From NCBI GenBank assembly GCA_020720115.1, contig DYPD01000001.1, forward strand, positions 3,044 to 67,043: 64,000 nucleotides of DNA, in the 5' to 3' direction. A program made the position numbers and the translations under genes. The stretch's first letter is position 1. Each line of letters begins with the position of its first letter. The notes under the pieces are model-generated. The model did not search any database. It was not told the DNA's origin and saw only the letters and a program-made list of their open reading frames with translations. Shown piece after piece: positions 10,952 to 58,462 of the stretch. Origin of the DNA: Thiomargarita sp. Its GTDB lineage: Bacteria; Pseudomonadota; Gammaproteobacteria; Beggiatoales; Beggiatoaceae.

Positions 10952-11805
10952 TTAACAAACTTTGTATTATCGGTGTGGGGCTAATCGGCGGCTCGCTGGC
11001 GCGGGCGCTGAAAGCCGCAGGCGAATGCGCTGAAGTGGTCGGCTGCGGACGCAATGCAGAAAACCTGCAAAAAGCCGTCGAATTGGGCGTCATTGATAGC
11101 TATTACAGCGACATGCGTAGTGCTGCTGAGGGCGCGGATGTGGTCGTGGTAGCGACGCCATTGGGCGCAATGGCGGAGGCTTTCGCGCAAATCGCCCCGG
11201 TGTTGCGTGAGGACGCACTGATTACCGATGTAGGCAGCACCAAAGCCAGCGTGGTAGCAGATGCTCGCGCCCACCTCGGCGCTCATTTTCCGCGCTTTGT
11301 GCCTGGGCATCCTATCGCCGGATCAGAGCAAAACGGCGTAACTGCTTCCTTTGCTGAGCTTTTTCAAAATCGTCGCGTGATTCTCACGCCGCTGCCGCAA
11401 ACTGACGCAAACGCGCACCAGCGCATCAAACGCATGTGGGAAATCACGGGCGCGGAAGTGGTGGATATGAATGTGGCGCATCACGATGAAGTGCTGGCGG
11501 CGACCAGCCATTTGCCGCATGTGCTGGCGTATACGCTGGTGGATTCACTGGCGCGAATGGAAGATCGGCGGGAAATTTTCCGCTTCGCAGCCGGCGGTTT
11601 TCGTGACTTTACCCGCATTGCCTCCAGTCATCCGCGCATGTGGCACGACATCTGTCTGGCTAATCAAACCGCTTTGGTGCATATGCTAGAAATCTTTGCG
11701 CATGATTTGCAAAAAGTGACCGATATGATTCGCTGTGCAGACAGCAAAGCTTTAGAAGAACTTTTCACCCGTGCTAAACAAAAACGAGATGAATTCAGTG
11801 GCTAA
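10945..11805 (+). CDS. tyrA: prephenate/arogenate dehydrogenase
   Basis: [18 protein letters not shown] Rossmann motif, [21 protein letters not shown]. Confidence 0.85.
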
Positions 11806-12361
11806 AGACTTATACGCAGCAATTAACACGGCATTACAAAGAGCGGGCGCAGAGGTGAGTGCCGCAGAAGCGCAAGGTGTTCTATGTGGCTTTTTATGTG
11901 CCAGTTTGGATTCCAATAGCAACGCTTGGATTGCATCGCTTTTACCAGCGATTGAAGACGGAGATGTATTAGCTCAACAAACCCAGCAGCTTTTAATTAA
12001 ATTACAAGGCTTCTATAGAGAACAATTAAACTCCAGTGATTTTCAATTTGCTTTATTGCTGCCAGACGACGAGCAGGCTTTGCAACAACGCTTAATTGAG
12101 CTTACCCGCTGGTGTGACGGTTTTACTTTAGGACTCAGTGTGGGTGGTTTAAGTCAGCAACGCAGTTTTGCTTTAAGCCAGGAAAGCCAAGAATTTTTAA
12201 CAGATGTGTTGAAATTTTCTGACTTAGAAACTGAATTAGCAGAAAATGAAGAACACGAAACTGCGTATATGGAATTGGTAGAATACCTTAAAGTAGGTAT
12301 TCTCACTTTATATGAAGATTGTCATCCTGCACAAATATTACCCGCATTAGGTATTCAATAG
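11771..12361 (+). CDS. ygfB: UPF0149 family protein YgfB
   Basis: AEAQGVLCGFLCA, LTRWCDGFTLGL and an acidic C-terminal region parallel E. coli YgfB. An alternative start is ATG 11789. Confidence 0.7.
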   Translation: MLNKNEMNSVAKDLYAAINTALQRAGAEVSAAEAQGVLCGFLCASLDSNSNAWIASLLPAIEDGDVLAQQTQQLLIKLQGFYREQLNSSDFQFALLLPDDEQALQQRLIELTRWCDGFTLGLSVGGLSQQRSFALSQESQEFLTDVLKFSDLETELAENEEHETAYMELVEYLKVGILTLYEDCHPAQILPALGIQ

Positions 12362-12364
12362 ATA

Positions 12365-40240: not shown

Positions 40241-42409
40241 ATGAACATGGTAACAATTATTCAAGGTACAACTAAAAAACCTGTTTCTGCACAAAGGCTG
40301 GCAGATTTCTTTGCGCATCATACGGAATATGACGGTTTTTTGTATATAGGCTATCCGATTATCGGTACTGCTGAAGGCCCCTATCCAATTGATGCCATTC
40401 TAATTTCAAGAAGCAAAGGACTTGTGGTTATCAGCCTAGTGGAAGGCCGAGATATAGATAAAAATGATGCGCAAAGCATTCAAGATGATAGCTGCAACAA
40501 GCTAGAGTCAAAACTCAGAGCACATAAAGCTTTAATGCAAGGACGAAAATTATTAGTTCCAATTTATCCGGTGATATTTGCACCTGCCATTAATGATGTT
40601 TCCGGTATTACCACCGATGATTACCCAATATGTAATGAAATAAATTTAGGCACATGGCTTGATAGTTGTGACTGGAGTGATTCAGAACATTTTGAGTCTT
40701 TAGTTGCTATTATCCAGGCAATATCAACGATTCGCAAAGGCCGCAAAAAAAGAGATGTTCAGAAGCTAGATTCTCGTGGAGCTAAGCTAAAACACTTGGA
40801 AGATTCCATTGCTAATCTTGATAATCTACAAGGTCGGGCAGTCATAGAAACAGTTGATGGTGTTCAGCGCATTCGCGGCCTGGCAGGTTCAGGAAAAACC
40901 ATCGTACTGGCATTGAAAGCAGCATATTTACATGCTCAACATCCTGAGTGGAAAATAGCGGTTACTTTTCACACTAGGTCGCTTAAAGGTCAATTTCGTC
41001 AACTTATTCATACTTTTACGATTGTACAGACCAATGAAGAACCAGACTGGGAAAATCTTCATATTATTCAATCATGGGGAGCACCAGGCGGAGGCGACAA
41101 GCACGGCTTATATTATAGCTTTTGCCAAGTTCATGGCTTAGAGTATTTTGATTTTAGTGCTGCTAAGCTTAGATTTGGACAGAACAATCCTTTTGCAGGT
41201 GCATGTCAGAAAGCACTTGACGATTGCACATCTACTTCTGCTATCTATGATGTGATTCTCGTAGATGAAGCGCAGGATTTTCCACCAGCGTTCTTGAGGA
41301 TGTGCTATGAATTACTTAAGCTTCCTGAAAAGCGTCTTGTGTATGCCTATGATGAATTACAGAATCTGAGTTCTCAGGCATTACCTCCGCCTGAAGAAAT
41401 TTTTGGCAAACATCACGACGGAACACCTAGAGTGACTCTTGTGAATCAACTTGGAAAACCTCAACAGGATGTAATTCTTGAAAAATGTTATCGTAATTCT
41501 CGTCCTGTATTAGCAACGGCTCATGCACTAGGATTTGGTATTTACAAAATACCCAGCGAAGGTATGAGTACCGGCTTAGTTCAAATTTTTGACCAGACTC
41601 AACTTTGGCAAGAAGTTGGCTATGACGTAACAGATGGAGAGTTGGCTGATGGTTGTGAAGTTACGCTTTCTAGAACAGAAAAAAGTAGCCCTCATTTTCT
41701 TGAAGAACATTCTGTCATTGATGACTTAATTCAGTTCCACTGTTTTAAATCTAAAGAGGAACAAGACCAGTGGGTTGCTGACGCCATTCACTTCAATCTT
41801 AAAAATGACGAACTACGTTCAGATGATATTATCGTTATCAACCCCGATCCTTTGTCGACAAGAGCTGCCGTTGGGCTAATCCGAAAAAAACTTTTTGAGC
41901 ATGGTATCAACTCTCACCTTGCAGGTGTCGATACTTCTCCTGATGTATTTTTTGACAGCGATAATGACTCTGTTGCATTTACTGGAATACATAGAGCAAA
42001 GGGCAATGAGGCCGGTATGGTTTACATTGTCAATGCTCAAGATTGTTATTCGTCATTTGGGAATATGGCAACCGTGCGCAATCGTCTGTTTACAGCGATT
42101 ACTCGGAGTAAAGCATGGGTTCGCGTTCTCGGTATAGGCTCAGGTATGCAATCTCTGATACAGGAATTTGAGCAAGTCAAAACTAATAAATTCAAGTTGC
42201 ATTTTCATTACCCAACTAAGGGAGAAAGAAAGAATCTCAATATTATTAATCGCGATATGACTAAAGATGAGGCTCGTATAGTGCAACAAAAGAAAAGTGA
42301 TGCTATAAAGCTTATTGACGATTTGGAGAATGGCCGAATTTTCCTTGAAGACCTTGGTTCAGAGCAACTTAAGCGACTTAAAACCATTCTGGACAGGGAG
42401 ACACAGTAA
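40241..42409 (+). CDS. superfamily-1 (UvrD/PcrA-like) helicase with N-terminal NERD/PD-(D/E)xK-like domain
   Basis: Walker A LAGSGKTIVLALKAAYL. Walker B YDVILVDEAQDF. YDELQNL, CYRNSRPV, FTGIHRAKGNEAGMVYIV, LFTAITRSKAWVRVLG. N-terminus: PIDAILISRSKGLVVISLVEGR. The AAGGAG position favours ATG 40247 over 40241. Confidence 0.85.
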   Translation: MNMVTIIQGTTKKPVSAQRLADFFAHHTEYDGFLYIGYPIIGTAEGPYPIDAILISRSKGLVVISLVEGRDIDKNDAQSIQDDSCNKLESKLRAHKALMQGRKLLVPIYPVIFAPAINDVSGITTDDYPICNEINLGTWLDSCDWSDSEHFESLVAIIQAISTIRKGRKKRDVQKLDSRGAKLKHLEDSIANLDNLQGRAVIETVDGVQRIRGLAGSGKTIVLALKAAYLHAQHPEWKIAVTFHTRSLKGQFRQLIHTFTIVQTNEEPDWENLHIIQSWGAPGGGDKHGLYYSFCQVHGLEYFDFSAAKLRFGQNNPFAGACQKALDDCTSTSAIYDVILVDEAQDFPPAFLRMCYELLKLPEKRLVYAYDELQNLSSQALPPPEEIFGKHHDGTPRVTLVNQLGKPQQDVILEKCYRNSRPVLATAHALGFGIYKIPSEGMSTGLVQIFDQTQLWQEVGYDVTDGELADGCEVTLSRTEKSSPHFLEEHSVIDDLIQFHCFKSKEEQDQWVADAIHFNLKNDELRSDDIIVINPDPLSTRAAVGLIRKKLFEHGINSHLAGVDTSPDVFFDSDNDSVAFTGIHRAKGNEAGMVYIVNAQDCYSSFGNMATVRNRLFTAITRSKAWVRVLGIGSGMQSLIQEFEQVKTNKFKLHFHYPTKGERKNLNIINRDMTKDEARIVQQKKSDAIKLIDDLENGRIFLEDLGSEQLKRLKTILDRETQ

Positions 42410-43104
42410 TGCCAACTCCAGAGCAAATTCGCCAACAAATGGAAATGCTCACCGCAGACTTAGTGGGTTTAAGCCTTTGTGATCGCCAAAATTTTCCATC
42501 ATTGCGTGATCTTGGTCATGGTTGCTATGAAGTTGGCATTGGGGAACGAGGCAATGTGAGTTATGCGCTCAAGAATGTTCCTTATCACGACATATATGTG
42601 GAGTTAGATCGAACCCAAACTTACAATTTGCGAATGCTTGATGGCGCACTTATCCAAATGATGTATCGATTCAGAGATAACCAAGTTGAATCTCATCGTT
42701 TGGCATTTTTTCCATCTCCATTTTTGGATGAATTCCAAAATAACCCAGAAATATACCTAGAAGATGAAATTTATGCTGAAGTTATTATGAAGAATATCGT
42801 GCCATTTCCTCTTCGTTTTGATTTTGATTGCCGAGACGAGATTGTTGTCGAGGTAGAACACCCAAAATCCCACCTTACATTAGGACAATATCAGAATTGT
42901 AGAATTCCTGTAAGCGCACCTTTAACGCCTTACCACTTTCTCGGATTTATTCTAAGAAATTTCTATAATACTGCCTACCATACATTTTCTACTAAAATTT
43001 CTTCTTTCTCAGAAGTTTTTAATATATCTATAACTGATTCAGAGATGGAGTTGTTATATGTTCAGATTCCTACTCAAGCTAGGTTGCAAAGCCGAAAATC
43101 CTGA
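42409..43104 (+). CDS. DUF2290-like protein (helicase partner)
   Basis: 231 aa. The start overlaps the helicase stop (TAATG at 42407-42411). LRFDFDCRD...EVEHPKSHLTLGQYQNCRIPV resembles the HP.SHLH...R.P core I associate with DUF2290. Not verified by search. Confidence 0.5.
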   Translation: MPTPEQIRQQMEMLTADLVGLSLCDRQNFPSLRDLGHGCYEVGIGERGNVSYALKNVPYHDIYVELDRTQTYNLRMLDGALIQMMYRFRDNQVESHRLAFFPSPFLDEFQNNPEIYLEDEIYAEVIMKNIVPFPLRFDFDCRDEIVVEVEHPKSHLTLGQYQNCRIPVSAPLTPYHFLGFILRNFYNTAYHTFSTKISSFSEVFNISITDSEMELLYVQIPTQARLQSRKS

Positions 43105-48578: not shown

Positions 48579-49322
48579 ATGGCGGGTATTTCAAAAATTG
48601 AATGGACCGAACAAACTTGGAATCCAACAACGGGTTGCGACAAGATTTCAGCGGGCTGCAAGCATTGCTACGCTGAAATCATGGCAAAACGACTGCAAGC
48701 CATGAAAGCAAAGGGATATGACAACGGCTTCAAATTAAGCATTCTGCCTGAACGTCTTGCCCCCCCATTCAAACGTAAAAAACCGACGACTTTCTTTGTC
48801 AATTCCATGAGCGATTTGTTTCATCAAGGCATTCCTGATGAATACTTAGATCAGGTATTCAATACGATTCATCAAACACCGCAACACCGTTATCAGATAT
48901 TGACCAAACGTGCCGAGCGATTGCCCGTGTATTTCAAAGACCGCGCTATCCCACAGAACGTCTGGCTAGGCGTGACCGTTGAAAACATCAAAGAAGGCTT
49001 GCCGAGAATAGATTTTTTAAGAAAAGTGCCTGCCAGTATTCGCTTCTTATCAATTGAACCTTTGTTAGAAGACTTAGGCGAAGTTGATTTAACGGGCATT
49101 CACTGGGTTATTGTGGGCGGTGAGAGCGGTGCAAAAGCTAGAAAAATGGAGCAATCTTGGGTAGAACATACCAAAGCACAATGCGAAGCTCAAAAAGTAT
49201 CATTTTTCTTTAAGCAATGGGGAACTTGGGGGGCTGATGGCACGAAAAGAGACAAAAAGAAAAATGGGCGGTTATTGCAAGGAAAAGCCTGGGATGGGAT
49301 GCCTGTTCAAACGAGAGTTTAA
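48579..49322 (+). CDS. phage Gp37/Gp68-family protein (DUF5131, three-Cys motif)
   Basis: ISKIEWTEQTWNPTTGCDKISAGCKHCYA (C-x6-C-x2-C), WLGVTVEN, IHWVIVGGESG. Confidence 0.85.
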   Translation: MAGISKIEWTEQTWNPTTGCDKISAGCKHCYAEIMAKRLQAMKAKGYDNGFKLSILPERLAPPFKRKKPTTFFVNSMSDLFHQGIPDEYLDQVFNTIHQTPQHRYQILTKRAERLPVYFKDRAIPQNVWLGVTVENIKEGLPRIDFLRKVPASIRFLSIEPLLEDLGEVDLTGIHWVIVGGESGAKARKMEQSWVEHTKAQCEAQKVSFFFKQWGTWGADGTKRDKKKNGRLLQGKAWDGMPVQTRV

Positions 49323-49777: not shown

Positions 49778-49785
49778 ATTTAACC

Positions 49786-49812
49786 AAAAAAATAAACTTG
49801 AGCAAGTTTATT
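49786..49812 (-). terminator. terminator-like hairpin at the 3' end of the five-gene operon
   Basis: The minus strand reads AATAAACTTG ct CAAGTTTATT followed by TTTTTGG. The stop codon of the 266-aa gene lies in the stem. The stem is AT-rich and therefore weak. Confidence 0.4.
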
Positions 49813-50608
49813 CATTGATTTTAAATTTCTCATTAACTTTGCGGCGGATTTTGTTGATTGGCGGCAAGCCATAGACTTGTCGAATTTCATCTACCAATTG
49901 TTCCATATAATCATCACATTCACGGATTCTCGTTTGATCCGTTGTAGTACCAACAATGTAAAGATCACGAAACTCAGTATGATGATAAAAAATGGCGCCG
50001 GCTTGCACATCAAACCCGATTTTAATCAGCCAGCCTTGTTCTAAATTTCTAAAACGCCGATTTAAGGAACTGACGATACCGTGCAAAGCAATACCAATAC
50101 GATCATAATGCTGCAATTGTTCTTCTGGTGTTTGTGGAAAGCGGCTTTGAATTTTCTCTTCATCTAAAATATGATCGGAAAAGTATTGTTGTTTATTATC
50201 AAATACACCTATGTAATGTAGTTTATTAAAAGCAAAATAGTTTTTACACTTGGGTCGCAACCCCTGTACATTCAAATGAGTATCTGGTAATTGTTTCAAT
50301 ACCGGGGTGCTGGTATCCAACCAATGCCCAATGATTTGCAGCAAAGAATACAGCAACCCGAAAATCGTCAGCACAAACAACATAATAAAAATTGCAGCAG
50401 TGATAGGATTAGCGACAATTACACCTTGTATATCATGCTGAAGTTCAGTAGAAATCAAAAAATACCAAAAAACAGTAAAGGCTAAGCATAGAGGTATAAT
50501 GGTTAGAGCTATACTTATCCGCAAAGGATAATCCCGTATCCAGCGATTTAAAACCTGTTTGAAATGGCTGGCAAAGTCGCTGAGTATTTGTCCAAATTCA
50601 GTTGCCAT
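49808..50608 (-). CDS. membrane protein of unknown function (at least 2 N-terminal TM helices plus a ~160-aa soluble C-domain), last gene of the STAND operon
   Basis: TM segments ISIALTIIPLCLAFTVFWYFLI and ITAAIFIMLFVLTIFGLLYSLLQII. The start is 2 nt after the WD40 gene stop. No motif I recognise. Confidence 0.7.
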   Translation of the reverse strand: MATEFGQILSDFASHFKQVLNRWIRDYPLRISIALTIIPLCLAFTVFWYFLISTELQHDIQGVIVANPITAAIFIMLFVLTIFGLLYSLLQIIGHWLDTSTPVLKQLPDTHLNVQGLRPKCKNYFAFNKLHYIGVFDNKQQYFSDHILDEEKIQSRFPQTPEEQLQHYDRIGIALHGIVSSLNRRFRNLEQGWLIKIGFDVQAGAIFYHHTEFRDLYIVGTTTDQTRIRECDDYMEQLVDEIRQVYGLPPINKIRRKVNEKFKINE

Positions 50609-50610
50609 GA

Positions 50611-53600
50611 TTATTTAACCCCAGTAATAGTTGGTTCAATCGGCTGCATGAGAATTTCTCGCGGTTCATTCATATCCAAAGTGTAAAACGCCAAGCGTTG
50701 GCTGGATGCCAAGGGCACTACCAGCCGGCAAAGTTTTTCTGAGGGCTGACAATGAATAGCGAAATCCCAATAGCGTTCTTTAGCGACAGTAGGCAAATGC
50801 AGCGTAAATAGAATCTCGGCAGGTTGTTTACTGAGGTCCCACAAACGCAATTTTGCTTCAGCATTCAGTGTCCACAAAGCATTGCCTTCCTGACTAAACT
50901 TCACTCTAAACACCTCTGCATCATCAAGCAAGCGCACGGGTTTTAATCCCTGATCTAAAGCGGCAAACGAATAAATATTTACATCGCCATTGAGCCCAGC
51001 CTCGACAAAATGCTTGCTATCAGGGCTAAAGTCCGCCCATAGTATTTCATTATTTGATTCAGGAAATGTGGGCAAGGGCACGGGTTGACTGCTTTGCAAT
51101 GCCCATAAGCGAGTCTGCCCGCGATTCCCTTGGTTATTACCGCTGCTTAATAAATAAGCCCCGCCAGAATTGAATGAAACCCTAAACAGATTTCCGCTAT
51201 GAGAGGGAAAAGAATCAATAGTTTCACCGTCGCTACTCTTTGTAATCCAACCCATAGAACCATTTGCGTTGGCAGTAACCAAATGCACATTGTCAGGCGC
51301 AAAAGCTACATCATACACAGCGCGCCAATCCGCCTGCATAAAGGTTTTTGGCTCAAGCAATTGCGCATCTGCCACTTGCCACAAAGTTGCCCCGTTATGC
51401 GCTCCAGCACTGAGCAACTGCTTGCCGTCATTACTGAAACCTAGATTAAAAATGCTCTTAATCTTTCCTGTGTTTGGACTTTCAGTGCAGCTTAATGGCA
51501 AACCGCCTTGATCATACAAACAAATATTACCTGCTTTAAAACCTACCGCCACCCTCTTGCCTTGCGGAGAAATAGCCACCGAGGTCGGCGTTCCATTGAG
51601 TTTAACTAAATATTGAAAGCCAGAATTGTCTGTATAGGGGGCGGGAATACGCCATTTTTTTATCTGCCCCTCATAACCCGCACTGTACACATAACTGCCG
51701 CCACGCGCTAAAGCCATTACATCCGCCGTATGCCCTTGTAACACATTCAGAGCACCGCCACCCGCTTCCACATCCCACACCCGAATGCTTTGATCCTGAC
51801 TACCGGACAACAGCAGAGTGCCCTCCTGATTAAATGCCAGCGCGTGAATTTTGCCTCTATGTCCACGAAAAATCTGTTTTTCCTGCTTTGACTCCAATTC
51901 CCAAATAGAAATCTTGTAATCATCATCCGCACTTGCCAGCAAGCGGTTATCCGGGCTGAATGCCAAGGCTCTTACCTTAGAAGTACGCGAAAAGCTATCA
52001 ACATACTTAAAATTTCCCGCTTCCAATTGCCATAGTTGCACAGCTTGCTTATCCAGAGAGGCAGCCGCCAGTAATTTTCCATCAGGGCTAAATGCCAATT
52101 GAATAATCCCGCCTCCAGTAATTATTGTTGTATCAGTTGCCTCTAACTTTCCCTCTTGCGTAATTCGCCACAGTTTAATCTCAGGTGCGATACCAGCCAC
52201 CGCCAACCAAGCACCATCAGGACTCATTGCCAAACTCAACAATTCATCCTCGGTATTGATTTCAACCGGTTCTTTGGCTTCTTTTAACCAGATTTGCCTC
52301 AACCAACCTTGCTTATCGGCTGTCACCAACCAGCGCCCCTGGGGTTCAAAGGCAATGGCGTTAATTTGATGATCAGTTTTTTGCAAAGCCAAAGGGAAAG
52401 GTTTGGCTGTTTCAGTATTAAAAATCACTAAAGCACCATTAGAACCACCAGCCGCCAACCATTGCCCATCCTGGCTTAAAGCGGAAGTACGCAAAGGAGT
52501 GCCTGGTGTCTCAAGCTTAAACGGAGTAGGAGAAATTTTTCGCATTTTCATGAAACCAGTTAAATAATCGCGTAAAAAACGCCTGCTCTCATCTATGCCT
52601 TGTTCCTTTTCTAATTTATAGCTTTCCTGCAAATAAACCTGTGCATTTTGGTAGTCATCAATATTCACTACCGCTTTTGCGCTGGTGAGTTTCGAGTCAA
52701 ACAATGCTTTTGAGCGCGTATGCAATAAATCTCTTTCTCTGATGGACTGTATCGTTTGTAAGGCAATAAGAATCAATAGAAAAGTACCAGCAAGCAAGGC
52801 AGCAAAGACTTTTATAAGACTCTGCATCCTTTGAGTTTTCATCGCTTGTGATTGTTGTAAACGTTCCGCTCTTTCTTTTTCTAACAATAGCTTTTGATTT
52901 TCAGCTTCCGCTGTTATTTTTTCTAATAATAAATTTTGATTATCAGTTAATAGTTGTTGATTCTTGACTTCGGCTTCTGCCCTGTCTTTTTCTAACAATA
53001 GTTTTTGATTTTCAGCTTCCGCCTTTTCTTTAGAAGCTTTGGCATCCTGATCCTGTTCTTGTAGCTTAAATATTTGAGCAAATAATTTATTATCAGACTC
53101 GGCTTTTTCTTTTTCTAACCTAATTTTTTCAGCTTCTTTTTGAGCTAATTTTAACTGAAATTCTTGACGGTAAGAATTATTAATTGCTTTTTCTTTTTCT
53201 AGTTTTTCATCCATATATTCTTTAGAAGAAAAAATAACTTTTCCTAGTTTGGATAAAAATAGTTGCTCACGTTTGTCAAGATGTTTTAATTTATCATTGG
53301 TCGTGAAATTTAGCGGCATCAGCTCCCGCCGAATATATTTTCTGAAACGACATAGAGTTACACTCTGATCTATAAGCGTATCCAAAGCAGAGGTTGCAGA
53401 GATGTCTTTTAGTTTTTCTTTTTGAATGTCTGTATAAACTTCAAATAAATCTCGCTCTTTTTCAGCAAATTTTTGCAAAAAATGCCATTGTCTGATAATA
53501 GCCTCATGCCGAAAAGAACATTGGCTTTTGTCATGTGAAAATCTTAAAATTCCCTTAAAGTGATCCATCACTGCTGCAACATGTGGTTTTTCTACCTCTA

Positions 53601-55083
53601 TGTCATTTTTTATTTCGTCGTCATCAAAAGCAATCTGCCGATATACAAACTCTCCTATATTTAGCTTATTTAATTCCTCAAGAGAAGTTGATTGATAAAA
53701 GTAGTAGTCTGCCGTGTCTTTTTTATAAAATTCTTGAACTCTGGTTCGCTGTTGTTTATGCACTGCAACCAATCGAGCAATTTCATCCAAAGAAACAGTG
53801 CCACCTAAGAAGCTAGTGTCAGGATCATTATCATAAACAGAAAAATCGTCCTTACATCTTGGAATGACCAAACGCCGAAATAATATTCCAGCAATCTCTT
53901 GAGCTATAGCAATGGAAAGCTTCTCACCGTTCTCTAATGACGGTTCAGCCTGGTAATCTCTATTTAGGCACTGATTAAAGATACCTTCTAATTCATCTTT
54001 TTTAGGATCGCTCTGATAGCAAAAAAAATGTAAGAATTTATTGTACTCATTTAAACTCAGGAGAATTTTTTTTGCACCTGAATCTATAGCTCTAGTTCTA
54101 GCTCTTTGTTTTTCCTGCTTAAATAATTCATGCAGAACATATTGTAACAATGATAATTTATCTGGTTCATACAAAAACTGTGTATTTTCCCCCTCTTTTT
54201 TATATAGCTTATCTAATAAATAATCTGAAAATTTATCATCAACCTGTATTTCATAATTGCGCAAATCTTCATATGATTTATCTATTCCACACAGCTTAGC
54301 TACTAGCTCTGGCTTTTGAATATTAACAATAGCCTGTTTAAGATTGTCTCTACTGATAAATGGCAAGTAATAAAAGCTGTTATTAATTTTATCAACTAAA
54401 CCAGGATAATTTGCGCAGGGTTGTAATTCCTCAGAACGTAATGCAATTAACACATAAATTTTATTAGGATAATATTTCTCTTTTGGAGAAACCGTATTTA
54501 GGATAAATTGAATAAATGATTGATTAGGATTATGTTCTTTTTCATCGCTTGGTTCAGCGGAGCCTATTTGCTTAACAACAGGGTTAACAAATAACTGCTC
54601 AAACTGATCTATCACCAGTAAAAAAGGTTTATCTATACCAAGCGTATTTTCCAAAAGACAATCGTGCAAACTATAAGAATCCACATCTTTTTTTATTTCT
54701 GATTTTATTTTTGAAAAATCAGTATTTTCCTTGACTAATGCTTTATTAACTAACTGATTTTTTAAGGTTAAAAACGGCTCTTCACTGCTGGATGCTCGGA
54801 TATAAACCAATGTCCAGTCTTTCTTTTCTGACCATACCTTGCTTTTTAATCCACCCATTAGCCCTGCGTATATCAATGAGCTTTTGCCAGAACTTGATTG
54901 CCCGATCAAAGCAACAAAATTTTCATAGGTTAAGCGGCTGCGTAGTTCTAATAACTCGTCATCACGACCAAAAAAAATGGAATGTTCTCTCATTTTGAAA
55001 TGACGGATACCAGGATAGAGATTACTGTCTGAACTCATGTGTTGATTACCCATATTCGATTTCACTGTGGTTTTATGTGGCAA
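50611..55083 (-). CDS. STAND-type P-loop NTPase - helical region - coiled coil - single TM - 14 WD40 repeats
   Basis: N-terminus YPGIRHFKMREHSIFFGRDDEL...VALIGQSSSGKSSLIYAGL (Walker A) and PFLLVIDQFEQLF (Walker B). Coiled coil with repeated AEAENQKLLLEK. TM LIKVFAALLAGTFLLILIALQTI (about aa 756-778). 14 units such as FSPDGKLLAAASLDKQAVQLWQL, FSPDNRLLASADDDYKISIWEL, FNQEGTLLLSGSQDQSIRVWDV. Confidence 0.85.
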   Translation of the reverse strand: MPHKTTVKSNMGNQHMSSDSNLYPGIRHFKMREHSIFFGRDDELLELRSRLTYENFVALIGQSSSGKSSLIYAGLMGGLKSKVWSEKKDWTLVYIRASSSEEPFLTLKNQLVNKALVKENTDFSKIKSEIKKDVDSYSLHDCLLENTLGIDKPFLLVIDQFEQLFVNPVVKQIGSAEPSDEKEHNPNQSFIQFILNTVSPKEKYYPNKIYVLIALRSEELQPCANYPGLVDKINNSFYYLPFISRDNLKQAIVNIQKPELVAKLCGIDKSYEDLRNYEIQVDDKFSDYLLDKLYKKEGENTQFLYEPDKLSLLQYVLHELFKQEKQRARTRAIDSGAKKILLSLNEYNKFLHFFCYQSDPKKDELEGIFNQCLNRDYQAEPSLENGEKLSIAIAQEIAGILFRRLVIPRCKDDFSVYDNDPDTSFLGGTVSLDEIARLVAVHKQQRTRVQEFYKKDTADYYFYQSTSLEELNKLNIGEFVYRQIAFDDDEIKNDIEVEKPHVAAVMDHFKGILRFSHDKSQCSFRHEAIIRQWHFLQKFAEKERDLFEVYTDIQKEKLKDISATSALDTLIDQSVTLCRFRKYIRRELMPLNFTTNDKLKHLDKREQLFLSKLGKVIFSSKEYMDEKLEKEKAINNSYRQEFQLKLAQKEAEKIRLEKEKAESDNKLFAQIFKLQEQDQDAKASKEKAEAENQKLLLEKDRAEAEVKNQQLLTDNQNLLLEKITAEAENQKLLLEKERAERLQQSQAMKTQRMQSLIKVFAALLAGTFLLILIALQTIQSIRERDLLHTRSKALFDSKLTSAKAVVNIDDYQNAQVYLQESYKLEKEQGIDESRRFLRDYLTGFMKMRKISPTPFKLETPGTPLRTSALSQDGQWLAAGGSNGALVIFNTETAKPFPLALQKTDHQINAIAFEPQGRWLVTADKQGWLRQIWLKEAKEPVEINTEDELLSLAMSPDGAWLAVAGIAPEIKLWRITQEGKLEATDTTIITGGGIIQLAFSPDGKLLAAASLDKQAVQLWQLEAGNFKYVDSFSRTSKVRALAFSPDNRLLASADDDYKISIWELESKQEKQIFRGHRGKIHALAFNQEGTLLLSGSQDQSIRVWDVEAGGGALNVLQGHTADVMALARGGSYVYSAGYEGQIKKWRIPAPYTDNSGFQYLVKLNGTPTSVAISPQGKRVAVGFKAGNICLYDQGGLPLSCTESPNTGKIKSIFNLGFSNDGKQLLSAGAHNGATLWQVADAQLLEPKTFMQADWRAVYDVAFAPDNVHLVTANANGSMGWITKSSDGETIDSFPSHSGNLFRVSFNSGGAYLLSSGNNQGNRGQTRLWALQSSQPVPLPTFPESNNEILWADFSPDSKHFVEAGLNGDVNIYSFAALDQGLKPVRLLDDAEVFRVKFSQEGNALWTLNAEAKLRLWDLSKQPAEILFTLHLPTVAKERYWDFAIHCQPSEKLCRLVVPLASSQRLAFYTLDMNEPREILMQPIEPTITGVK
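52875..53022. repeat. 37-nt direct repeat (1 mismatch) spaced 111 nt apart inside the coiled-coil coding region
   Basis: ctttttctaacaatagCttttgattttcagcttccgc (52875-52911) versus ctttttctaacaatagTttttgattttcagcttccgc (52986-53022). In frame, encoding AEAENQKLLLEK. Confidence 0.8.
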
Positions 55084-55110
55084 TGTTATTTGTAAAAATA
55101 TAACCTAGAT

Positions 55111-55674
55111 TTAAGGACACTGGTGTGTCCAATGACGATCCTTAGCCTGTCCTAGCCTGCAAAGAATCCCTTGTAGTATGTCATCTTCAACCAGTTCATC
55201 CTCCATGTCTTTATTATATTTATGTTGAGCATTGCCTGATTTCCTAATATATCGCCATCTAATATTAAATGAACATTCAAGATGTGGATGATGAGCGCAA
55301 ACATCATTTAGAATCTGAAAAAACACAATATTTCCAATTTTCTGCGTGAAAAAATCGGAGTCACATACTATGGAACTTGCCTCAGCATAGGAAAACCCAT
55401 TAGACAGTACAAAAAAGGCAAAATCCCAATTTTCGGGGTTTTTTTCTGGCTTAGGTTGTTTTTCTTGTTTTAAGCCAAAATCATCTTCTTGTGCCTGTAT
55501 ATTGGTATTTAATTTATCTATAAACTTGACAGAGTCGTTATCCAGTTTGAGATAAGAGGCTGCAAGTTCATCCTGTATTTTAGTAAGTAAATATGTAATT
55601 AAGGTTTTCTCCATTTTATTGTGCTCTTTTCTAGCAACATAAACATGCAGCAGCAAAGTTTTTTCACTGGACAT
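55111..55674 (-). CDS. hypothetical 187-aa protein in the STAND operon
   Basis: Start taken at ATG 55674 (MSSEKTLLLHVYVARKE...), preceded by GGTGGAG. The longer track ORF (to 55722) would overlap the upstream mini-gene. No motif I recognise. Confidence 0.6.
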   Translation of the reverse strand: MSSEKTLLLHVYVARKEHNKMEKTLITYLLTKIQDELAASYLKLDNDSVKFIDKLNTNIQAQEDDFGLKQEKQPKPEKNPENWDFAFFVLSNGFSYAEASSIVCDSDFFTQKIGNIVFFQILNDVCAHHPHLECSFNIRWRYIRKSGNAQHKYNKDMEDELVEDDILQGILCRLGQAKDRHWTHQCP

Positions 55675-55700
55675 ACAATCTCCACCTTGTATTTTTTTGT

Positions 55701-55871
55701 TTAGAGTTTTACCGTGCCACACCGCCCGTCTATTTCAGGGTTGCATTCTTGCGGTGGTGGTTTAGGCTGTTCTTTCTTTGGGTCTTCATTATTTTTATCT
55801 GCAGCATAAGCCCATAAACACAAGCCTACGTTTAAAAGCAAGTAAAGCAGTAATTTTTTGTGTATAGGCAT
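55701..55871 (-). CDS. unannotated 56-aa secreted mini-protein (signal peptide plus 33-aa Pro/Lys-rich mature part with C-x7-C)
   Basis: Hand translation: MPIHKKLLLYLLLNVGLCLWAYAADKNNEDPKKEQPKPPPQECNPEIDGRCGTVKL*. AGGAG lies 5 nt upstream of the ATG. It sits 11 bp after the upstream gene and 26 bp before the next. Below the track length cutoff. Confidence 0.5.
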   Translation of the reverse strand: MPIHKKLLLYLLLNVGLCLWAYAADKNNEDPKKEQPKPPPQECNPEIDGRCGTVKL

Positions 55872-55882
55872 GAAATCTCCTG

Positions 55883-57853
55883 CTAATTACCTGATGGCTT
55901 TCTTTCTATAAGCTGTTTTATGTAGGCACATAATATCTCGAATATATCCAGTGTTTTTGGATAAGAAGATATATCTTTAAAACTGGGTTGTTCGTTATCT
56001 TTAAAACTGGGTTGTTCGTTTATGAGATGCCAAAGCCTTTCTAACTCACCCCTAGTTTCCATAAGTTGAATAACCTTGGGTATTTGTTCCATTTTTGAGC
56101 CATTCAATAGCCCATCAGAAATATTAGATGAAAACTTGACAATTTCAAACTCTGCTTGAAGCAACCTGATTAAATCATCTTTGATTTTTTCCTTTACTAA
56201 ATCAGCGCTAGCTGTATCAAATTTAACAGGATAACTAAAAGTTAAACAATTTGTTAGTATAGATATATTTTCTCTTAATTCAAATATATTTGTAAAATTT
56301 GCTTCTCTTAATAGCTTTATTTGCTCATCTGAAAGAATATTTTCGCGGGAAGACTTCTCGACCAAAATAACACACTGCTCCTCTGATTTATTAGTCAAAA
56401 AATTAGCCAACTTGTACCATTCATCGTCTGCGTATGCTGTATCTAGCAGCACAATCAGAATTTGAGATTTCATTATAAAGCCATTTAGGACTTCCGTTTT
56501 AGTAAAAAAGCGAGGAATCTCTCTTTCCGAACAAATTAAATACTGCTTTATATTTTCCTGGTGTACATATTTTTTTGAGATTTGTGTTGGATTTTTTCTG
56601 AGTTGCTTTGCTAGCTTATCTGTAAATTCATTTACCCAATCAACATCTGACTCTGAAAAATCTACAAAAATATTGTAGATAAATTTTGAGCTATTATTAG
56701 AAGTATTCGATTCAAGAGTAACGGATGCCTCATTTTGTTTTGTCATCGCTAATAATTCCGGTTTCTTTATTTTGTAATTACATAACAATGGAAAAATCTC
56801 TTGTTTAGTATGGTTTCTTTCTGTAAGCGCAATTTTGTCATCATCAGGTCTCAGCCCATGTGTTTTATGCGCTATAGGATAGAAATAAATTTGCCCCTGT
56901 ATTTCATCTATGAATTCAATTTTTCCAATACTATAGCCGTGAGAACGCTTGCAATCTGTATTGTAATACTCTAAACCAAATAAAGAACGTCCAATCCAGG
57001 TACGATAAGGAAACGCACCATTTTCACTGATAACACGATAGCTTGGGTCGTGCATATGCCCGCACAAATGCGCTATGAAGCGCCCATCTAAATTGATTTC
57101 TCCGCGCAAATGCTGTTGCGAATCCCTGTCCAGCCAAGTTTGCGGATGATGGGTGAGCAACAGACAGGCTTGGTGTTGGCTTGCCCATGCGGGTCCATCT
57201 TCTGGACTATGGAAAGGTGCATGGAATTGTTTCGTGTGTAGTGCGAGTTTGCCTTCGTAATCGCCGTTTTGCAGTTGTAAAAAGGCGGTGTTGAGTCCGA
57301 AAATACCGAGTTTTGCGCCTTCTTTTTCGAGTGTGTAGGCAAAATCGCCAGGCAGCATTCCGAGTTTGAGGTCTTTGGGGATAAGCGGCTGATTGTTAAA
57401 CCAATCAGTGTAATTTCTAAAGGCTTTGTTGATGATTTTACGGTAGGGCGATTGCGGGTTTTCCCAAAATTCATCTTGGATTTCTCGGTCTTCTTGCCAT
57501 TGAAGCAAAAGTTTCAGTGAGGGGTCTTTGGCTTTGAGATTGGTGGGGGTGGGTCTGATGAGATCGTGGTTGCCAGGAACGGGAAGGAATTTGGGTTGGT
57601 TTTTGGGGTCAATGCGCTCAAAGGCTTGCCAAAGTGCGTCCAGTATGGCATTCAGCTTATTAAACTCTTCCGCTGTGCCTTTTTGCACCAGATCGCCGGT
57701 AAAGAGCACTAAATCCCAAGGTTGCCCACCGGTTTTTTCATAAAGTTTGGCAAGATGTTGAAACCAGCGTTCTCTGTAGGTGGGATACATCCAGTCTTGA
57801 TCGCGCATCCCGCAGTGCAGATCGGTTAAGTGTAGCCAGGTAAATTGTGCCAT
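55883..57853 (-). CDS. calcineurin-like metallophosphoesterase fused to a TIR-like module and a C-terminal helical tail
   Basis: MPE motifs LHLTDLHCG, FTGDLV, VPGNHDL, LLTHHP, CGHMHD. After about aa 395: FIYNIFVDFSESDVDWVNEFTDKLAKQL ... SQILIVLLDTAYADDEWYKLANFL, which resembles a TIR beta-A/alpha-A and the ..S.W..EL region. Confidence 0.75.
   Translation of the reverse strand: MAQFTWLHLTDLHCGMRDQDWMYPTYRERWFQHLAKLYEKTGGQPWDLVLFTGDLVQKGTAEEFNKLNAILDALWQAFERIDPKNQPKFLPVPGNHDLIRPTPTNLKAKDPSLKLLLQWQEDREIQDEFWENPQSPYRKIINKAFRNYTDWFNNQPLIPKDLKLGMLPGDFAYTLEKEGAKLGIFGLNTAFLQLQNGDYEGKLALHTKQFHAPFHSPEDGPAWASQHQACLLLTHHPQTWLDRDSQQHLRGEINLDGRFIAHLCGHMHDPSYRVISENGAFPYRTWIGRSLFGLEYYNTDCKRSHGYSIGKIEFIDEIQGQIYFYPIAHKTHGLRPDDDKIALTERNHTKQEIFPLLCNYKIKKPELLAMTKQNEASVTLESNTSNNSSKFIYNIFVDFSESDVDWVNEFTDKLAKQLRKNPTQISKKYVHQENIKQYLICSEREIPRFFTKTEVLNGFIMKSQILIVLLDTAYADDEWYKLANFLTNKSEEQCVILVEKSSRENILSDEQIKLLREANFTNIFELRENISILTNCLTFSYPVKFDTASADLVKEKIKDDLIRLLQAEFEIVKFSSNISDGLLNGSKMEQIPKVIQLMETRGELERLWHLINEQPSFKDNEQPSFKDISSYPKTLDIFEILCAYIKQLIERKPSGN
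55973..56020. repeat. perfect 24-bp tandem duplication within the tail of the MPE-TIR-like gene
   Basis: atctttaaaactgggttgttcgtt x2 (55973-55996 and 55997-56020). In frame, giving NEQPSFKD-NEQPSFKD. Confidence 0.9.
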
Positions 57854-57955
57854 GATGTGTGATTTTTAGTGTGGTTTTGTGAGAGGTAAGGCGGCATTCT
57901 TGCACAGTTATTCGGGCTTCTCAAGCCTGTAAAAGTAGCTTGTTTTGGCTGTTTT

Positions 57956-58462
57956 TTAAGAGATATTTTGGAGCACTATTTGCCAGTCGGTGCTGTTCAT
58001 GAGGAATTGCCAATTGAAAAATTCTTCTTCTAATAAGGGGAGGTGGGTGAATAAGGCTGTATAGTTGTTTTCTTCTGCTTGTTGTTCTAGGTAGTAGGCG
58101 AGTTCTCCTAAGCGGGTGGCGGCTATGCTACGGGCTTCGCCTTTTAAGGCGTGTAGTAGTTGCTTTAGTTGGTTGTGGGTGGGGTTGGATTCTTGGCTAA
58201 GGGCTTTGAGGGCTTGTAGGCGTTTTTGGGTGTCTTCGCTGAAAGCGGTTTTGAGTGCTTGTAATATGTCTGGGTTGCCGAGCACTAGCTGTTGTAGGCG
58301 CGGTATGTCGAGCACTGGAAGCTCTTTGAGGTTCAGTGGCAAGGCGCATTTGGCAGGTAATTGGCTGGCTGCTCTGGGACGGATAATAGGCGCATTTGAT
58401 GTGTAGGCTGTGGTGGTCATGTGGAGCATAATAGAATAGTCCTCTGGTTTGACATAGCGCAA
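57956..58462 (-). CDS. Hpt (histidine phosphotransfer) domain protein
   Basis: LKQLLHALKGEARSIAATRLGELAYYLEQ is the classic H-x-x-K-G Hpt helix. The start codon is uncertain. Confidence 0.7.
   Translation of the reverse strand: MRYVKPEDYSIMLHMTTTAYTSNAPIIRPRAASQLPAKCALPLNLKELPVLDIPRLQQLVLGNPDILQALKTAFSEDTQKRLQALKALSQESNPTHNQLKQLLHALKGEARSIAATRLGELAYYLEQQAEENNYTALFTHLPLLEEEFFNWQFLMNSTDWQIVLQNIS

Follow-up and report, generated by a model that had tools for sequence, protein, structure and literature searches.

A five-gene block of Thiomargarita sp., contained in a stretch of 64,000 nucleotides that we analysed as a whole (the window), encodes what we consider, with some reserve, to be an NLR-like receptor of the nSTAND1 clade that spans the inner membrane, together with partners encoded in trans. 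The receptor, gene D, appears to belong to a widespread family whose members are paired with a TIR-family partner. The partner in this block, gene A, appears to be a derived form in which a metallophosphoesterase domain has been gained. The block may serve phage defence or, alternatively, envelope signalling.

Gene order, composition and signals of the block

The five genes, A to E, are uninterrupted ORFs on the minus strand, and the JGI gene calls for the source contig give the same five, including the 56-aa gene B. Intergenic gaps are 11 nt (A–B), 26 nt (B–C), 27 nt (C–D, or 57 nt with the ATG start of D), and 2 nt (D–E), which bears out the co-directional arrangement with gaps of 2–27 nt described in the original prediction. 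For D, homologue alignment favours the ATG at 55053, the start called by JGI, over a TTG at 55083 that gives 1490 aa. The features are as follows:

55883..57853, minus strand: gene A, 656 aa (ORF and Pfam)
56774..57853, minus strand: A aa 1–360, metallophosphoesterase domain (alignment A1; GC 0.45)
56267..56722, minus strand: A aa 378–529, TIR-family module without the catalytic Glu (partner-family HMM and alignment)
55886..56266, minus strand: A aa 530–656, helical tail (alignment A1 and TRF)
55701..55871, minus strand: gene B, 56 aa, predicted secreted mini-protein (ORF and JGI call)
55111..55674, minus strand: gene C, 187 aa, cytoplasmic (ORF; frame open up to a GTG at 55722)
50611..55053, minus strand: gene D, ATG start, 1480 aa (Pfam and alignment)
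52828..55053, minus strand: D aa 1–742, predicted cytoplasmic part with NTPase, helical region and coiled-coil-like stretch
52750..52818, minus strand: D aa 746–768, transmembrane (TM) helix LIKVFAALLAGTFLLILIALQTI (hydropathy)
50614..52500, minus strand: D aa 852–1480, 13–14 WD40 blades in two propellers, predicted periplasmic (self-profile and Pfam)
49808..50608, minus strand: gene E, 266 aa (hydropathy and homologue search)
49786–49812, minus strand: terminator-like hairpin, A/U-rich, overlapping the E stop codon and followed by a U-run

The hairpin 3′ of E folds at −10.3 kcal/mol (z = −4.2; RNA fold of 49780–49820), and these values and the U-run support the terminator that had been proposed here. 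A simple terminator scan did not pick it up because the stem is A/U-rich. Promoter-like sites at the locus are no more frequent than expected by chance. As previously suggested, the block is AT-rich compared with aspS (GC 0.57), though it is a mosaic: GC is 0.45 in the phosphoesterase part of A, 0.32 in its TIR module and tail, 0.35 in C, about 0.33–0.335 in the ATPase part of D, 0.455 in the WD40 part of D, and 0.37 in E. The adjacent DUF5131 gene, at first taken for a decayed phage-type neighbour, is intact and full-length (Pfam). PADLOC recognises a Helicase-DUF2290 pair and a DUF5131 candidate near the block. No PADLOC model matches the NTPase or the TIR-family partner and none covers the five-gene set, in line with the earlier view that it corresponds to no named system.

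The receptor family and its TIR-family partner

Gene D matches nSTAND1 at 138.8 bits (cut-off 27.1) and also matches WD40 families (Pfam), and both its Walker A (GQSSSGKS, aa 51–58) and Walker B (LLVIDQFE, aa 145–152) motifs are intact. The cytoplasmic part would end in a Lys/Glu-rich, heptad-like stretch of roughly 130 aa that is coiled-coil-like by eye and holds a 42-bp ×2 repeat at 52864–52946. Next comes the sole hydrophobic helix in D (Kyte-Doolittle 19-residue mean of 2.54), and beyond it 13 WD40 blades are clearly recognised by a self-profile, which leaves space for a 14th. These results support the original description of D as a STAND NTPase with a TM helix and a WD40 repeat sensor.

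The TM helix is a feature of the family. It lies between the NTPase and the WD40 region in all three D homologues that adjoin phosphoesterase-TIR proteins and, in a genome scan, at aa 380–650 in 71 of 76 full-length relatives. In the 15 residues flanking these helices, Lys and Arg together average 5.8 on the N-side against 2.7 on the C-side, and 68 of the 71 relatives have more of them on the N-side. One relative encodes two PG_binding_1 domains beyond the helix (E = 5e-37). D itself has three Lys/Arg residues on the N-side versus four on the C-side (counted by eye), which is not decisive, so the topology is argued from its relatives. Taken together, the family-wide helix, the charge bias and the peptidoglycan-binding domains of one relative point to a sensor outside the cytoplasm. 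D would thus cross the inner membrane and most probably expose its WD40 sensor to the periplasm. This placement departs from the cytosolic Avs/NLR proteins to which the block was initially likened.

Relatives of D are regularly paired with another gene. Among 79 evaluable relatives, drawn from many phyla, 67 are immediately preceded on the same strand by a gene for a ∼500-aa protein with a TIR_2 domain (over the Pfam cut-off) and DUF4062. Of four close phosphoesterase-TIR homologues whose contigs were examined, three are followed by an nSTAND1-TM-WD40 gene, with overlapping stop and start codons, and the fourth is not. In two loci (L002 and L004), SLATT_2 proteins and ParE/YoeB-type toxin genes adjoin the pair. 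The available portions of the literature yielded no description of membrane-spanning STAND receptors paired with a TIR-family partner. Co-occurrence across genomes, raised in the original prediction, is thus found for the pair; for the full set, the A-C-D-E order is repeated in one other contig only (L087). This deeply diverged contig encodes, in order, a TIR-like A′, a 179-aa protein, an nSTAND1-TM-WD40 protein and E′. Preservation of the arrangement at only 26–31% identity argues for selection on it.

Gene A encodes a calcineurin-like metallophosphoesterase, as proposed (Metallophos, 50.4 bits versus a cut-off of 21.5). It retains D11, H13, D54, N95-H96-D97, H235, H266 and H268, which are invariant in a 13-sequence alignment (A1) and which we take to be the metal-binding motifs of the phosphoesterase family. 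An NCBIfam anti-phage phosphoesterase model scores 33.5 bits on A versus a cut-off of 420. More than 1000 homologues match the domain, and they include fusions to EAD1/3/7/8, TIR, NACHT, NB-ARC, FGS, CHAT and caspase domains in cyanobacteria, Beggiatoa, Desulfobacteraceae and Myxococcales.

The second module of A scores 16.7 bits against Pfam TIR, under the cut-off of 21.3. It matches the partner-family HMM (E = 3e-5), whose profile matches solved TIR domains, and is 30% identical to its L087 counterpart (E = 9e-11). A reads DEWY--K where the family motif is S-x-W-C-x-x-E, and the catalytic Glu kept in 45 of 54 partner proteins is thereby replaced; the module is therefore not a candidate NADase. 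Of the TIR-like module first proposed, the family assignment stands and the NADase role is unsupported. The helical tail stands where homologues have DUF4062-type modules. It has no Pfam match and contains a perfect 24-bp ×2 duplication (55972–56020) that encodes NEQPSFKD twice (TRF). The missing DUF4062 modules find no match in any frame of 54900–56900, where only A's own TIR region matches. A is 656 aa long, compared with 830–893 aa in its closest full-length relatives, and the lengths of A, B and C sum to 899 aa. By these comparisons, A appears to be a derived, lineage-specific form of the TIR+DUF4062 partner that gained a phosphoesterase, lost the catalytic Glu and had DUF4062 replaced by the tail.

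Genes B, C and E

Gene B had been predicted as a 56-aa signal-peptide gene, and its ORF, the JGI call and a strong Shine-Dalgarno sequence (GGAGA, 4 nt ahead of the ATG) agree. A hydrophobic stretch (aa 6–25) is followed by a predicted signal-peptide cleavage site between AYA and A, and the predicted mature peptide is 32 aa long, Lys/Pro/Glu-rich, and contains two Cys. Sequence search found no homologue of B. L087 may hold a positional analogue, provided that one nucleotide in a T12 run is corrected.

Gene C likewise has a Shine-Dalgarno sequence, AGGTGGAGA, 4 nt ahead of its ATG. Searches of 5.8 billion clustered proteins and of 1.84 billion representatives gave no homologue, and its AF2 model is of too low confidence to be usable (pLDDT 37). 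By sequence C is an orphan, cytoplasmic and lineage-specific. The 179-aa protein of L087 occupies the position of C and has a C-terminal motif in common with it, and homology between the two is marginal by BLAST (E = 0.43), with a local z of 3 and a z of 6.2 for the tail, which was chosen post hoc.

Gene E was originally described as polytopic. It has instead two TM helices (about aa 29–53 and 69–94 by hydropathy) and a C-terminal soluble domain of ∼170 aa, predicted to be cytoplasmic, with the family domain at about aa 113–253 (nt 49850–50272). Pfam and PDB searches gave no match for E, and its predicted structure likewise falls short of usable confidence (pLDDT 53). A search with the domain finds 121 homologous clusters other than the queries, including fusions to NACHT-like STAND and to TIR_2. 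E-domain genes also lie directly downstream of STAND-TPR proteins, and the nearest homologue of E is encoded immediately 3′ of an nSTAND1-WD40 gene. Other relatives adjoin Na+/H+-exchanger-like proteins or lie within an Mrp antiporter operon. The domain defines an unannotated family tied to STAND NTPases and Na+/H+-exchanger-like proteins, and this cytoplasmic domain replaces the earlier picture of E as a generic membrane-acting effector.

Proposed function and relation to known systems

We conjecture that D would hold its NTPase/oligomerisation module and coiled-coil-like stretch in the cytoplasm, cross the membrane once and expose two WD40 propellers to the periplasm, the compartment into which the two-Cys peptide B would be secreted. 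The propellers would sense a ligand or an envelope perturbation, and NTP-dependent oligomerisation of D at the cytoplasmic face would then cluster A. The phosphoesterase of A, activated by clustering, would hydrolyse NAD+ or a nucleotide, leading to growth arrest or death. The intact N-terminal phosphoesterase would thus supply the enzymatic output, and the TIR-family module would most probably only dock A onto D. Docking is a guess because A lacks DUF4062-type modules and B and C lie between the two genes; Pfam detects no EAD in either A or D that they might have in common. E may be a second, membrane-level output or a regulator, and B and C may be modulators. One element of the original prediction is retained here: the candidate effector is encoded apart from the sensor and switch. 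Comparative genomics lists the phosphoesterase family of A among conflict-system effectors (PMC7159879, PMC8195603).

The neighbourhoods of distant relatives suggest another role. Across 64 such loci, 127 proteins encoded in the flanks yield only ∼5 PADLOC matches, all via generic models, and these flanks have no defence-island signature. They contain OMP_b-brl_2 (8), OmpA (4), PD40 (4) and MFS (4) Pfam matches, and housekeeping genes for iPGM, shikimate kinase and queuosine synthesis. The partner-NTPase pair of Bacteroidota is part of a conserved block whose other products are a HEAT/MFS-like membrane protein of ∼1060 aa, an outer-membrane beta-barrel protein, a 434-aa protein, a 1712-aa PKD/Big_5 surface protein and sometimes a HAMP-SpoIIE phosphatase. 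Core contexts unrelated to defence, which would count against a defence system, thus largely prevail in the distant family, whereas the window itself holds PADLOC elements near the block. It is therefore possible, and we hold this tentatively, that the block is concerned with envelope or cell-surface signalling and not with immunity. The sensor would monitor the cell wall, outer membrane or cell-cell contacts, and the TIR/phosphoesterase partner, by making or degrading a nucleotide second messenger, would adjust physiology with no suicide. The peptidoglycan-binding domains in one sensor region and the antiporter associations of E-domain relatives are consistent with such signalling. However, the sub-branch nearest the window is conflict-like, with its SLATT_2 proteins and ParE/YoeB-type toxins, and the phosphoesterase family of A is fused elsewhere to caspase, CHAT, NACHT and EAD domains. 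Moreover, the block has a higher AT content than its neighbours and two elements recognised by PADLOC are close by, and TIR and DUF4062 domains, where tested, are NAD+-consuming immune effectors.

Two further readings appear improbable. A conventional cytosolic antiphage sensor, in which the helix is a mere tether and the WD40 region binds a phage protein inside the cell, would fit the combination of STAND, repeat sensor and candidate nucleotide- or NAD+-degrading effectors seen in Avs/bNACHT logic (PMC7159879), and WD40 sensors are indeed found in Apaf-1 and other cytosolic STANDs, as well as in certain bacterial clades of these proteins. We consider it unlikely: one helix after a 740-residue cytoplasmic part carries the C-terminus across the membrane unless the helix is non-spanning, and the one-sided charge bias in relatives, the peptidoglycan-binding domains at the sensor position in one of them and the lack of a PADLOC Avs match all disfavour it. 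Slightly less likely still is a decaying, non-functional remnant in which the partner has lost TIR catalysis and its C-terminal modules and B and C are chance ORFs. The shortness of A and the 899-aa sum, the lost Glu, the lack of sequence-detectable homologues of B and C, and the very low GC mid-operon would suit this reading. Yet no frame retains the missing modules, all five ORFs are uninterrupted, the ribosome-binding sites of B and C are strong and correctly spaced, A and D keep their phosphoesterase and Walker motifs, and the order of truncated partner, small gene, NTPase and E is kept in L087.

The membrane-spanning receptor that we favour has relatives among several described systems. 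Its NTPase is a clear member of the nSTAND1 clade of conflict systems (Kaur, Iyer, Burroughs and Aravind, eLife 2021, PMC8195603; PF20703). Calcineurin-like phosphoesterase and TIR are listed there as effector domains linked to nSTAND1-type NTPases. The published descriptions available connect nSTAND1 with FGS/CLec sensors and with N-terminal EADs or fused effectors, and do not mention the TM helix, extracytoplasmic sensor or upstream TIR+DUF4062 gene of the D family. A and D have no EAD detectable by Pfam. The conflict network of Kaur et al. (eLife 2020, PMC7159879) has an effector family in common with the phosphoesterase of A, but its MoxR-vWA ternary, DO-GTPase-GAP1, EACC1-caspase and NucA cores are absent from this block. 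There, SLATT 2TM proteins accompany nucleotide-related effectors, as they do in L002 and L004; E has no Pfam match and does not belong to the SLATT group. Metis MisA is a calcineurin-like phosphoesterase reported to deplete NAD+ to NMN and AMP in defence (as cited in bioRxiv 10.64898/2026.09.04.749371). With MisA, a metallophosphoesterase acting as an immune effector that degrades NAD+ has a precedent, and the comparison with A is one of enzyme type.

The block follows the tripartite logic of Avs and bNACHT systems, with sensor repeats, a STAND switch and an effector. An Avs protein is one cytosolic polypeptide that carries its effector fused at the N-terminus and senses phage terminase, portal and similar proteins inside the cell. 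Here, in contrast, the effector is a separate gene, the sensor would lie beyond a TM helix, and no PADLOC Avs model matches. The partner of the wider family, which combines TIR_2 with DUF4062, recalls the DUF4062/NIR NADase systems (Swarozyc, Vulcan/Vesta and Evangelion; 2026 preprints). The DUF4062-STAND-WD40 combination of the D family also echoes animal TEP1/NWD1 (DUF4062-NACHT-WD40). Compared with both groups, the bacterial family encodes its TIR/DUF4062 protein separately and its STAND protein appears to be membrane-spanning; A itself lacks DUF4062. Toll-like receptors combine an extracytoplasmic repeat sensor, a single TM helix and a cytoplasmic TIR-family partner, with no NTPase. Their sensor and switch have no homology to those of the block, and the comparable layout of D and A would be a functional analogy only.

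Operon layout and the probable membrane topology of gene D

The best-supported reading of the locus is a membrane-spanning STAND receptor that would carry a periplasmic WD40 sensor and use a trans-encoded cytoplasmic partner as its output. Five minus-strand open reading frames make up the operon, all at the positions given in the original prediction, and the same five genes appear in JGI's own calls on the source metagenome contig (3300000234):

55883-57853, minus strand: gene A, ORF of 656 aa, phosphoesterase/TIR-like protein
55701-55871, minus strand: gene B, ORF of 56 aa, predicted secreted mini-protein
55111-55674, minus strand: gene C, 187 aa, orphan; the open frame runs on to a GTG at 55722
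50611-55083, minus strand: gene D, 1490 aa from a TTG (1480 aa from the ATG at 55053), STAND NTPase with WD40 repeats
49808-50608, minus strand: gene E, ORF of 266 aa, membrane protein

The intergenic gaps A/B, B/C, C/D and D/E measure 11, 26, 27 (or 57) and 2 nt, and both B and C have a strong Shine-Dalgarno sequence 4 nt ahead of the ATG. The terminator-like hairpin proposed after E is upheld by RNA folding: a hairpin rich in A and U (-10.3 kcal/mol, z = -4.2) precedes a U-run 3′ of the gene. Promoter-like sites were no more frequent in our scan than expected by chance. The island had also been described as AT-rich; its GC content is indeed low against the 0.57 of aspS, but it is not uniform, with values of 0.32–0.35 in the TIR and tail regions of A, in C, and in the NTPase and coiled-coil-like part of D, 0.37 in E, and 0.45 in the phosphoesterase of A and the WD40 region of D. 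This mosaic within 49808-57853 suggests that modules may have been exchanged by recombination.

Gene D encodes an nSTAND1 NTPase (PF20703; residues 23–328 of the 1490-aa form, 138.8 bits against a cut-off of 27.1, E = 4.7e-40) and matches many WD40/propeller families in Pfam. Walker A (GQSSSGKS at aa 51, by the criterion GxxxxGK[ST]) and Walker B (LLVIDQFE at aa 145, by hhhhD[DEQ]) are both invariant among the aligned homologues. A self-profile finds 13 WD40 blades with space for a 14th, and the predicted combination of STAND NTPase and WD40 repeats is thereby borne out. The NTPase begins at about residue 13–23, without an N-terminal domain ahead of it. A single strongly hydrophobic helix (aa 746–768) follows a Lys/Glu-rich stretch that reads by eye as a coiled coil; in this stretch, just ahead of the helix, lies an in-frame tandem repeat of 42 bp x2 with 82% matches (52864-52946). 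All three D homologues that adjoin phosphoesterase-TIR genes likewise have a transmembrane (TM) helix between NTPase and WD40.

Scanning the NTPase alignment against one genome per species yielded 80 loci from Acidobacteriota, Bacteroidota, Verrucomicrobiota, Planctomycetota, Alphaproteobacteria, Cyanobacteria and other groups. A helix is found at aa 380–650 in 71 of the 76 full-length relatives. Its 15-residue flanks hold on average 5.8 Lys and Arg residues on the N-terminal side vs 2.7 on the C-terminal side, and the N-terminal flank is the richer in 68 of the 71. Beyond the helix, 44 of the 76 have WD40 repeats and the others a TPR, FG-GAP-like or rhodanese-like region; in one relative (L007) this part contains two peptidoglycan-binding domains (PG_binding_1, E = 5e-37) and a GH19-like piece. 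Since an ATP-binding N-terminal domain must be cytoplasmic, the helix would most probably place the sensor outside the cytoplasm, and both the positive-inside bias of the family and the PG_binding_1 domains of L007 argue for this topology. The flanking charges of D alone are not decisive.

The partner gene and the phosphoesterase of gene A

The NTPases of this family are usually encoded beside a second gene. Among the 79 loci with enough upstream sequence, 67 have as their adjacent same-strand upstream gene a protein of 450–540 aa that matches the profile of a TIR-family partner, mostly with a gap of -20 to +20 nt. TIR_2 is above the cut-off in all six partners scanned against Pfam; DUF4062 is at the cut-off in one of these six, sub-threshold in three and without report in two, and it is above the cut-off in the upstream protein of L010, which the TIR profile missed. 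Solved TIR domains (L6, RPP1, Cat1 and TLR2, for example) are among the matches of the partner-family profile, and 45 of the 54 partners retain the TIR Glu. A helix shared across the family, positive charges concentrated on its N-terminal side and peptidoglycan-binding domains past the helix together indicate a STAND receptor with a putatively periplasmic sensor, paired with a TIR+DUF4062 protein across many phyla. We found no description of this TM architecture or of the TIR-partner pair in the literature on nSTAND1, DUF4062 and transmembrane or periplasmic STAND proteins; coverage of that literature is incomplete, so the absence is not proof of novelty. L020 (8425-16386) contains two copies of the partner gene, identical in length and HMM score (509 aa, E = 4.6e-30), and its nSTAND1 genes are fragmented; this suggests that the region either was duplicated in tandem and acquired frameshifts or is misassembled.

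Gene A is co-directional with D, lies upstream of it and carries the TIR module of the partner family. Unlike the pair-type partners, it lacks DUF4062 modules, and B and C (∼830 nt) intervene where the partner abuts the NTPase in those 67 relatives. Its phosphoesterase matches PF00149 (Metallophos) at 50.4 bits against a Pfam cut-off of 21.5. A keeps every residue that is invariant across an alignment of 13 homologues; D11, H13, D54, N95, H96, D97, H235, H266 and H268, all invariant there, we take to be the metal-binding motifs (DxH, GD, GNH[DE], H and GHxH). The TIR-like module scores 16.7 bits in Pfam, under the cut-off of 21.3, and residues 378–529 are matched by the partner-family profile (E = 3e-5). 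Here the family motif SxWCxxE reads DEWY--K by both MAFFT and HMM alignment, with a two-residue deletion and a Lys at the Glu position. The catalytic Glu is therefore gone from A, and the 'TIR-like Glu' once put forward as a target for mutation does not exist in this protein.

The phosphoesterase domain has >1000 homologues at 45–55% identity in cyanobacteria, Beggiatoa sp. PS, Desulfobacteraceae, Myxococcales and other Gammaproteobacteria, where its fusion partners include EADs, TIR, NACHT/NB-ARC/AAA_35, FGS, CHAT and caspase domains. Such a set of fusions is the effector repertoire of Kaur et al. (PMC7159879, PMC8195603). The phosphoesterase-TIR homologues of A are 830–893 aa long and consist of phosphoesterase, TIR, DUF4062 and a third module; A ends after the TIR-like module and has a helical tail in place of further modules. 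A perfect in-frame tandem duplication of 24 bp x2 lies in this tail (55972-56020, NEQPSFKD twice). On the contigs examined, an nSTAND1-WD40 gene with overlapping stop and start follows three of four phosphoesterase-TIR homologues, with a SLATT_2 gene upstream in two of these three loci (L002 and L004); no such NTPase gene lies behind the fourth. The phosphoesterase profile has no match in the 80 distant D-family loci; the domain is thus an N-terminal extension confined to one lineage. The best-supported reading is that the partner in the window's lineage swapped a catalytic TIR for a phosphoesterase, the TIR-like module probably being retained as an adaptor. Gene A may thus offer a natural case of a dead TIR module acting as adaptor for a phosphoesterase effector. 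In L005, a second, divergent phosphoesterase paralogue (3-1958) lies upstream of the phosphoesterase-TIR/nSTAND1 pair; downstream (9249-14480) the locus encodes a protein of 1743 aa that combines kinase, AAA_16, GAF and guanylate-cyclase domains.

Genes B, C and E and their distant counterparts

Gene B has a signal-peptide-like N-terminus. Gene E does encode membrane helices, as expected, but only two, followed by a soluble C-terminal part of ∼170 aa, and is not the polytopic protein first envisaged. B, C and E have no homologues in the loci of A and D homologues, and all three are orphans in a word-indexed search. When C and E, concatenated into one query, were searched exhaustively with HMMER against 1.84 billion representatives, C gave no matches and the C-terminal domain of E (residues ∼113–253) gave 121 clusters. 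These clusters match no Pfam family or PDB sequence, and a PDB profile search gave TM noise only. Architectures in which the domain occurs include attachment to TM helices (the form seen in E), a tandem pair, a C-terminal fusion on a NACHT-like STAND protein, and a combination with both TIR_2 and TM helices. Single-sequence AF2 models of E (pLDDT 53) and C (pLDDT 37) are too poor for a fold search, and the predicted beta-beta-alpha-beta-beta-beta-alpha order of the E domain only hints at a roadblock/longin-like fold. Assignment of E to SLATT (PF18181/PF18183) was rejected, as E has no Pfam match above noise and the SLATT_2 proteins of L002 and L004 are unrelated to E.

The full operon arrangement recurs in one contig only, the deeply diverged L087 (GC 0.30). 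There an nSTAND1-TM-WD40 gene of 1384 aa is followed after 6 nt by the closest relative of E (30% identity). A 179-aa ORF precedes the nSTAND1 gene and, ahead of this ORF, the contig encodes the C-terminal end of an A-like protein, with a TIR-like module that shares 30% identity with that of A (E = 9e-11). The 179-aa protein has C's position, a similar length and a common C-terminal motif, GI.CR...A...HW...C-end, with overall similarity that is marginal. Between the A-like and C-like genes (549-790) is an open frame of 75 codons that lacks a start codon; lengthening the T12 run at 568-579 to T13 would bring an upstream ATG, at 549, into frame with it, and the product would then be a signal-peptide-like, Lys/Pro/Glu-rich peptide. 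The T12 run could be a homopolymer assembly error or a real frameshift, and the resemblance of the frame to B is suggestive and no more. Support for B and C is limited to their ribosome-binding sites and to positional conservation in this one diverged contig. The idea that B and C are remnants of lost modules was discarded: a 54-sequence partner HMM run over six frames of 54900-56900 matched the TIR region of A alone, and hhalign of C and its L087 counterpart against the partner alignment gave no match.

A metagenome scan with an eight-sequence E alignment uncovered further contexts, those of more distant E-domain genes. In at least 12 loci (L089-L091, L098, L101, L104-L106, L111 and L114-L117) the E-domain gene is followed by a 340–410-aa protein with 7–9 TM helices, a homologue of Na+/H+ exchangers (PF00999); in L114 the two genes lie within an Mrp antiporter operon, with mrpF on one side and mrpG on the other. 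STAND-TPR proteins, one of them with TIR_2, precede E-domain genes in three loci. Because the domain is associated with STAND NTPases in several independent contexts, we regard E as a genuine component of the system. Its C-terminal domain represents an unannotated family tied to STAND NTPases and Na+/H+-exchanger-like proteins, and is directly testable.

Genomic context, role and relation to known systems

Nearby genes of note in the window are:

40241-43104, plus strand: 722-aa UvrD-type helicase and 231-aa DUF2290 protein, reading frames abutting
48579-49322, plus strand: full-length DUF5131 protein (Pfam positions 2–243 of 243)
57956-58462, minus strand: 168-aa Hpt-domain protein (Pfam E = 3.4e-10)

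The helicase and DUF2290 proteins match PADLOC 'Helicase' (E = 0) and 'DUF2290' (E = 5e-105), a recognised candidate defence pair; their GC is 0.40 vs 0.48 for the window, and dctP, pepA and aspS separate them from the operon, ∼7 kb away. The DUF5131 protein corresponds to PADLOC candidates PDC-M30B and PDC-M41B (E ∼1e-110), with a weak 'radical SAM mobile pair protein A' match, and no partner gene for it is evident in the 485-nt gap ahead of gene E. The region had first been called decayed; this gene is intact. The Hpt-domain gene is co-directional, 102 nt upstream of A and host-like in GC (0.48), and nothing points to its being part of the operon.

Toxin-antitoxin-type and SLATT genes adjoin the loci most closely related to the window. 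Farther afield, L012, L023, L038, L042 and ∼20 other Bacteroidota loci share a conserved block around the TIR-partner/nSTAND1-TM-WD40 pair: a ∼1060-aa HEAT/MFS-like membrane protein, the pair, a ∼350-aa outer-membrane beta-barrel, a ∼430-aa protein and a ∼1700-aa PKD/Big_5 surface protein, in some cases with a HAMP-SpoIIE phosphatase. Pfam matches on the flanks of the distant family comprise outer-membrane barrels, OmpA, PD40, MFS and housekeeping enzymes. PADLOC, run without a control set on 127 flanking proteins from 64 distant loci, gave ∼5 matches, all to generic models, which speaks weakly against a defence-island context for the wider family. We give a role in conflict or defence about an even chance; envelope signalling is the alternative, to which we assign a clearly lower probability. 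Were the latter the role, rather than immunity, TIR and STAND modules would be unreliable as defence markers. Uncertainty about the locus endures because its topology and contacts are inferred, the full arrangement was seen only once more and the literature base is incomplete.

To our knowledge, all characterised bacterial STAND or NLR-like immune sensors detect ligands inside the cell. A bolder reading, which we advance only tentatively, is that D belongs to a widespread group of outward-looking NLR-like receptors with a periplasmic repeat or peptidoglycan-binding sensor, one TM helix, a cytoplasmic STAND switch and a separate TIR-family partner; on this view the window locus would have diverged from the basic form, with a phosphoesterase as its output, a secreted peptide as modulator and, as a new element, a membrane protein associated with STAND proteins. 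No description of such a family was found in the literature searched. If it exists, bacteria could detect phage or competitor attack, or a breach of the envelope, before anything reaches the cytoplasm. If the sensor is indeed periplasmic, an 'outside-in' branch would be added to bacterial NLR-type signalling, and the widespread gene pair would offer a concrete system in which the transmembrane control of a STAND switch could be tested.

Searches with PADLOC-DB 2.0 and NCBIfam recognised no system in the operon. PADLOC matches are limited to PDC-S10 for A (E = 0.004) and a WD40-driven HEAT-ARM_XIII match for D, with nothing for the NTPase module and none for B, C or E; for the family's partners and NTPases it has no model, giving only weak ThsB-type TIR matches. 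The parts of the gene set (nSTAND1, calcineurin-like and TIR effectors) are of known kinds; no description was found, in an incomplete literature base, of the outside-sensor TM architecture, the conserved TIR+DUF4062 partner gene or the E-domain family. A shared EAD, on the effector and on the NTPase or core protein encoded beside it, marks the EAD-coupled conflict systems of Kaur et al. (2020). This is not so in A and D, neither of which has a Pfam match to EAD families PF19955–PF19961 at E ≤ 0.1, whereas many homologues of the A phosphoesterase carry EADs. Avs proteins require a fused N-terminal effector; D has no domain ahead of its NTPase and matches no Avs profile in PADLOC. The proposed analogy with Avs and NLR-like systems holds for the switch, an nSTAND1 NTPase, but most probably not for the compartment, given the family-wide TM helix, the charge bias and, in L007, PG_binding_1 beyond the helix. 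The outward-looking reading would instead give D the layout of Toll-like receptors, but built from NLR parts.
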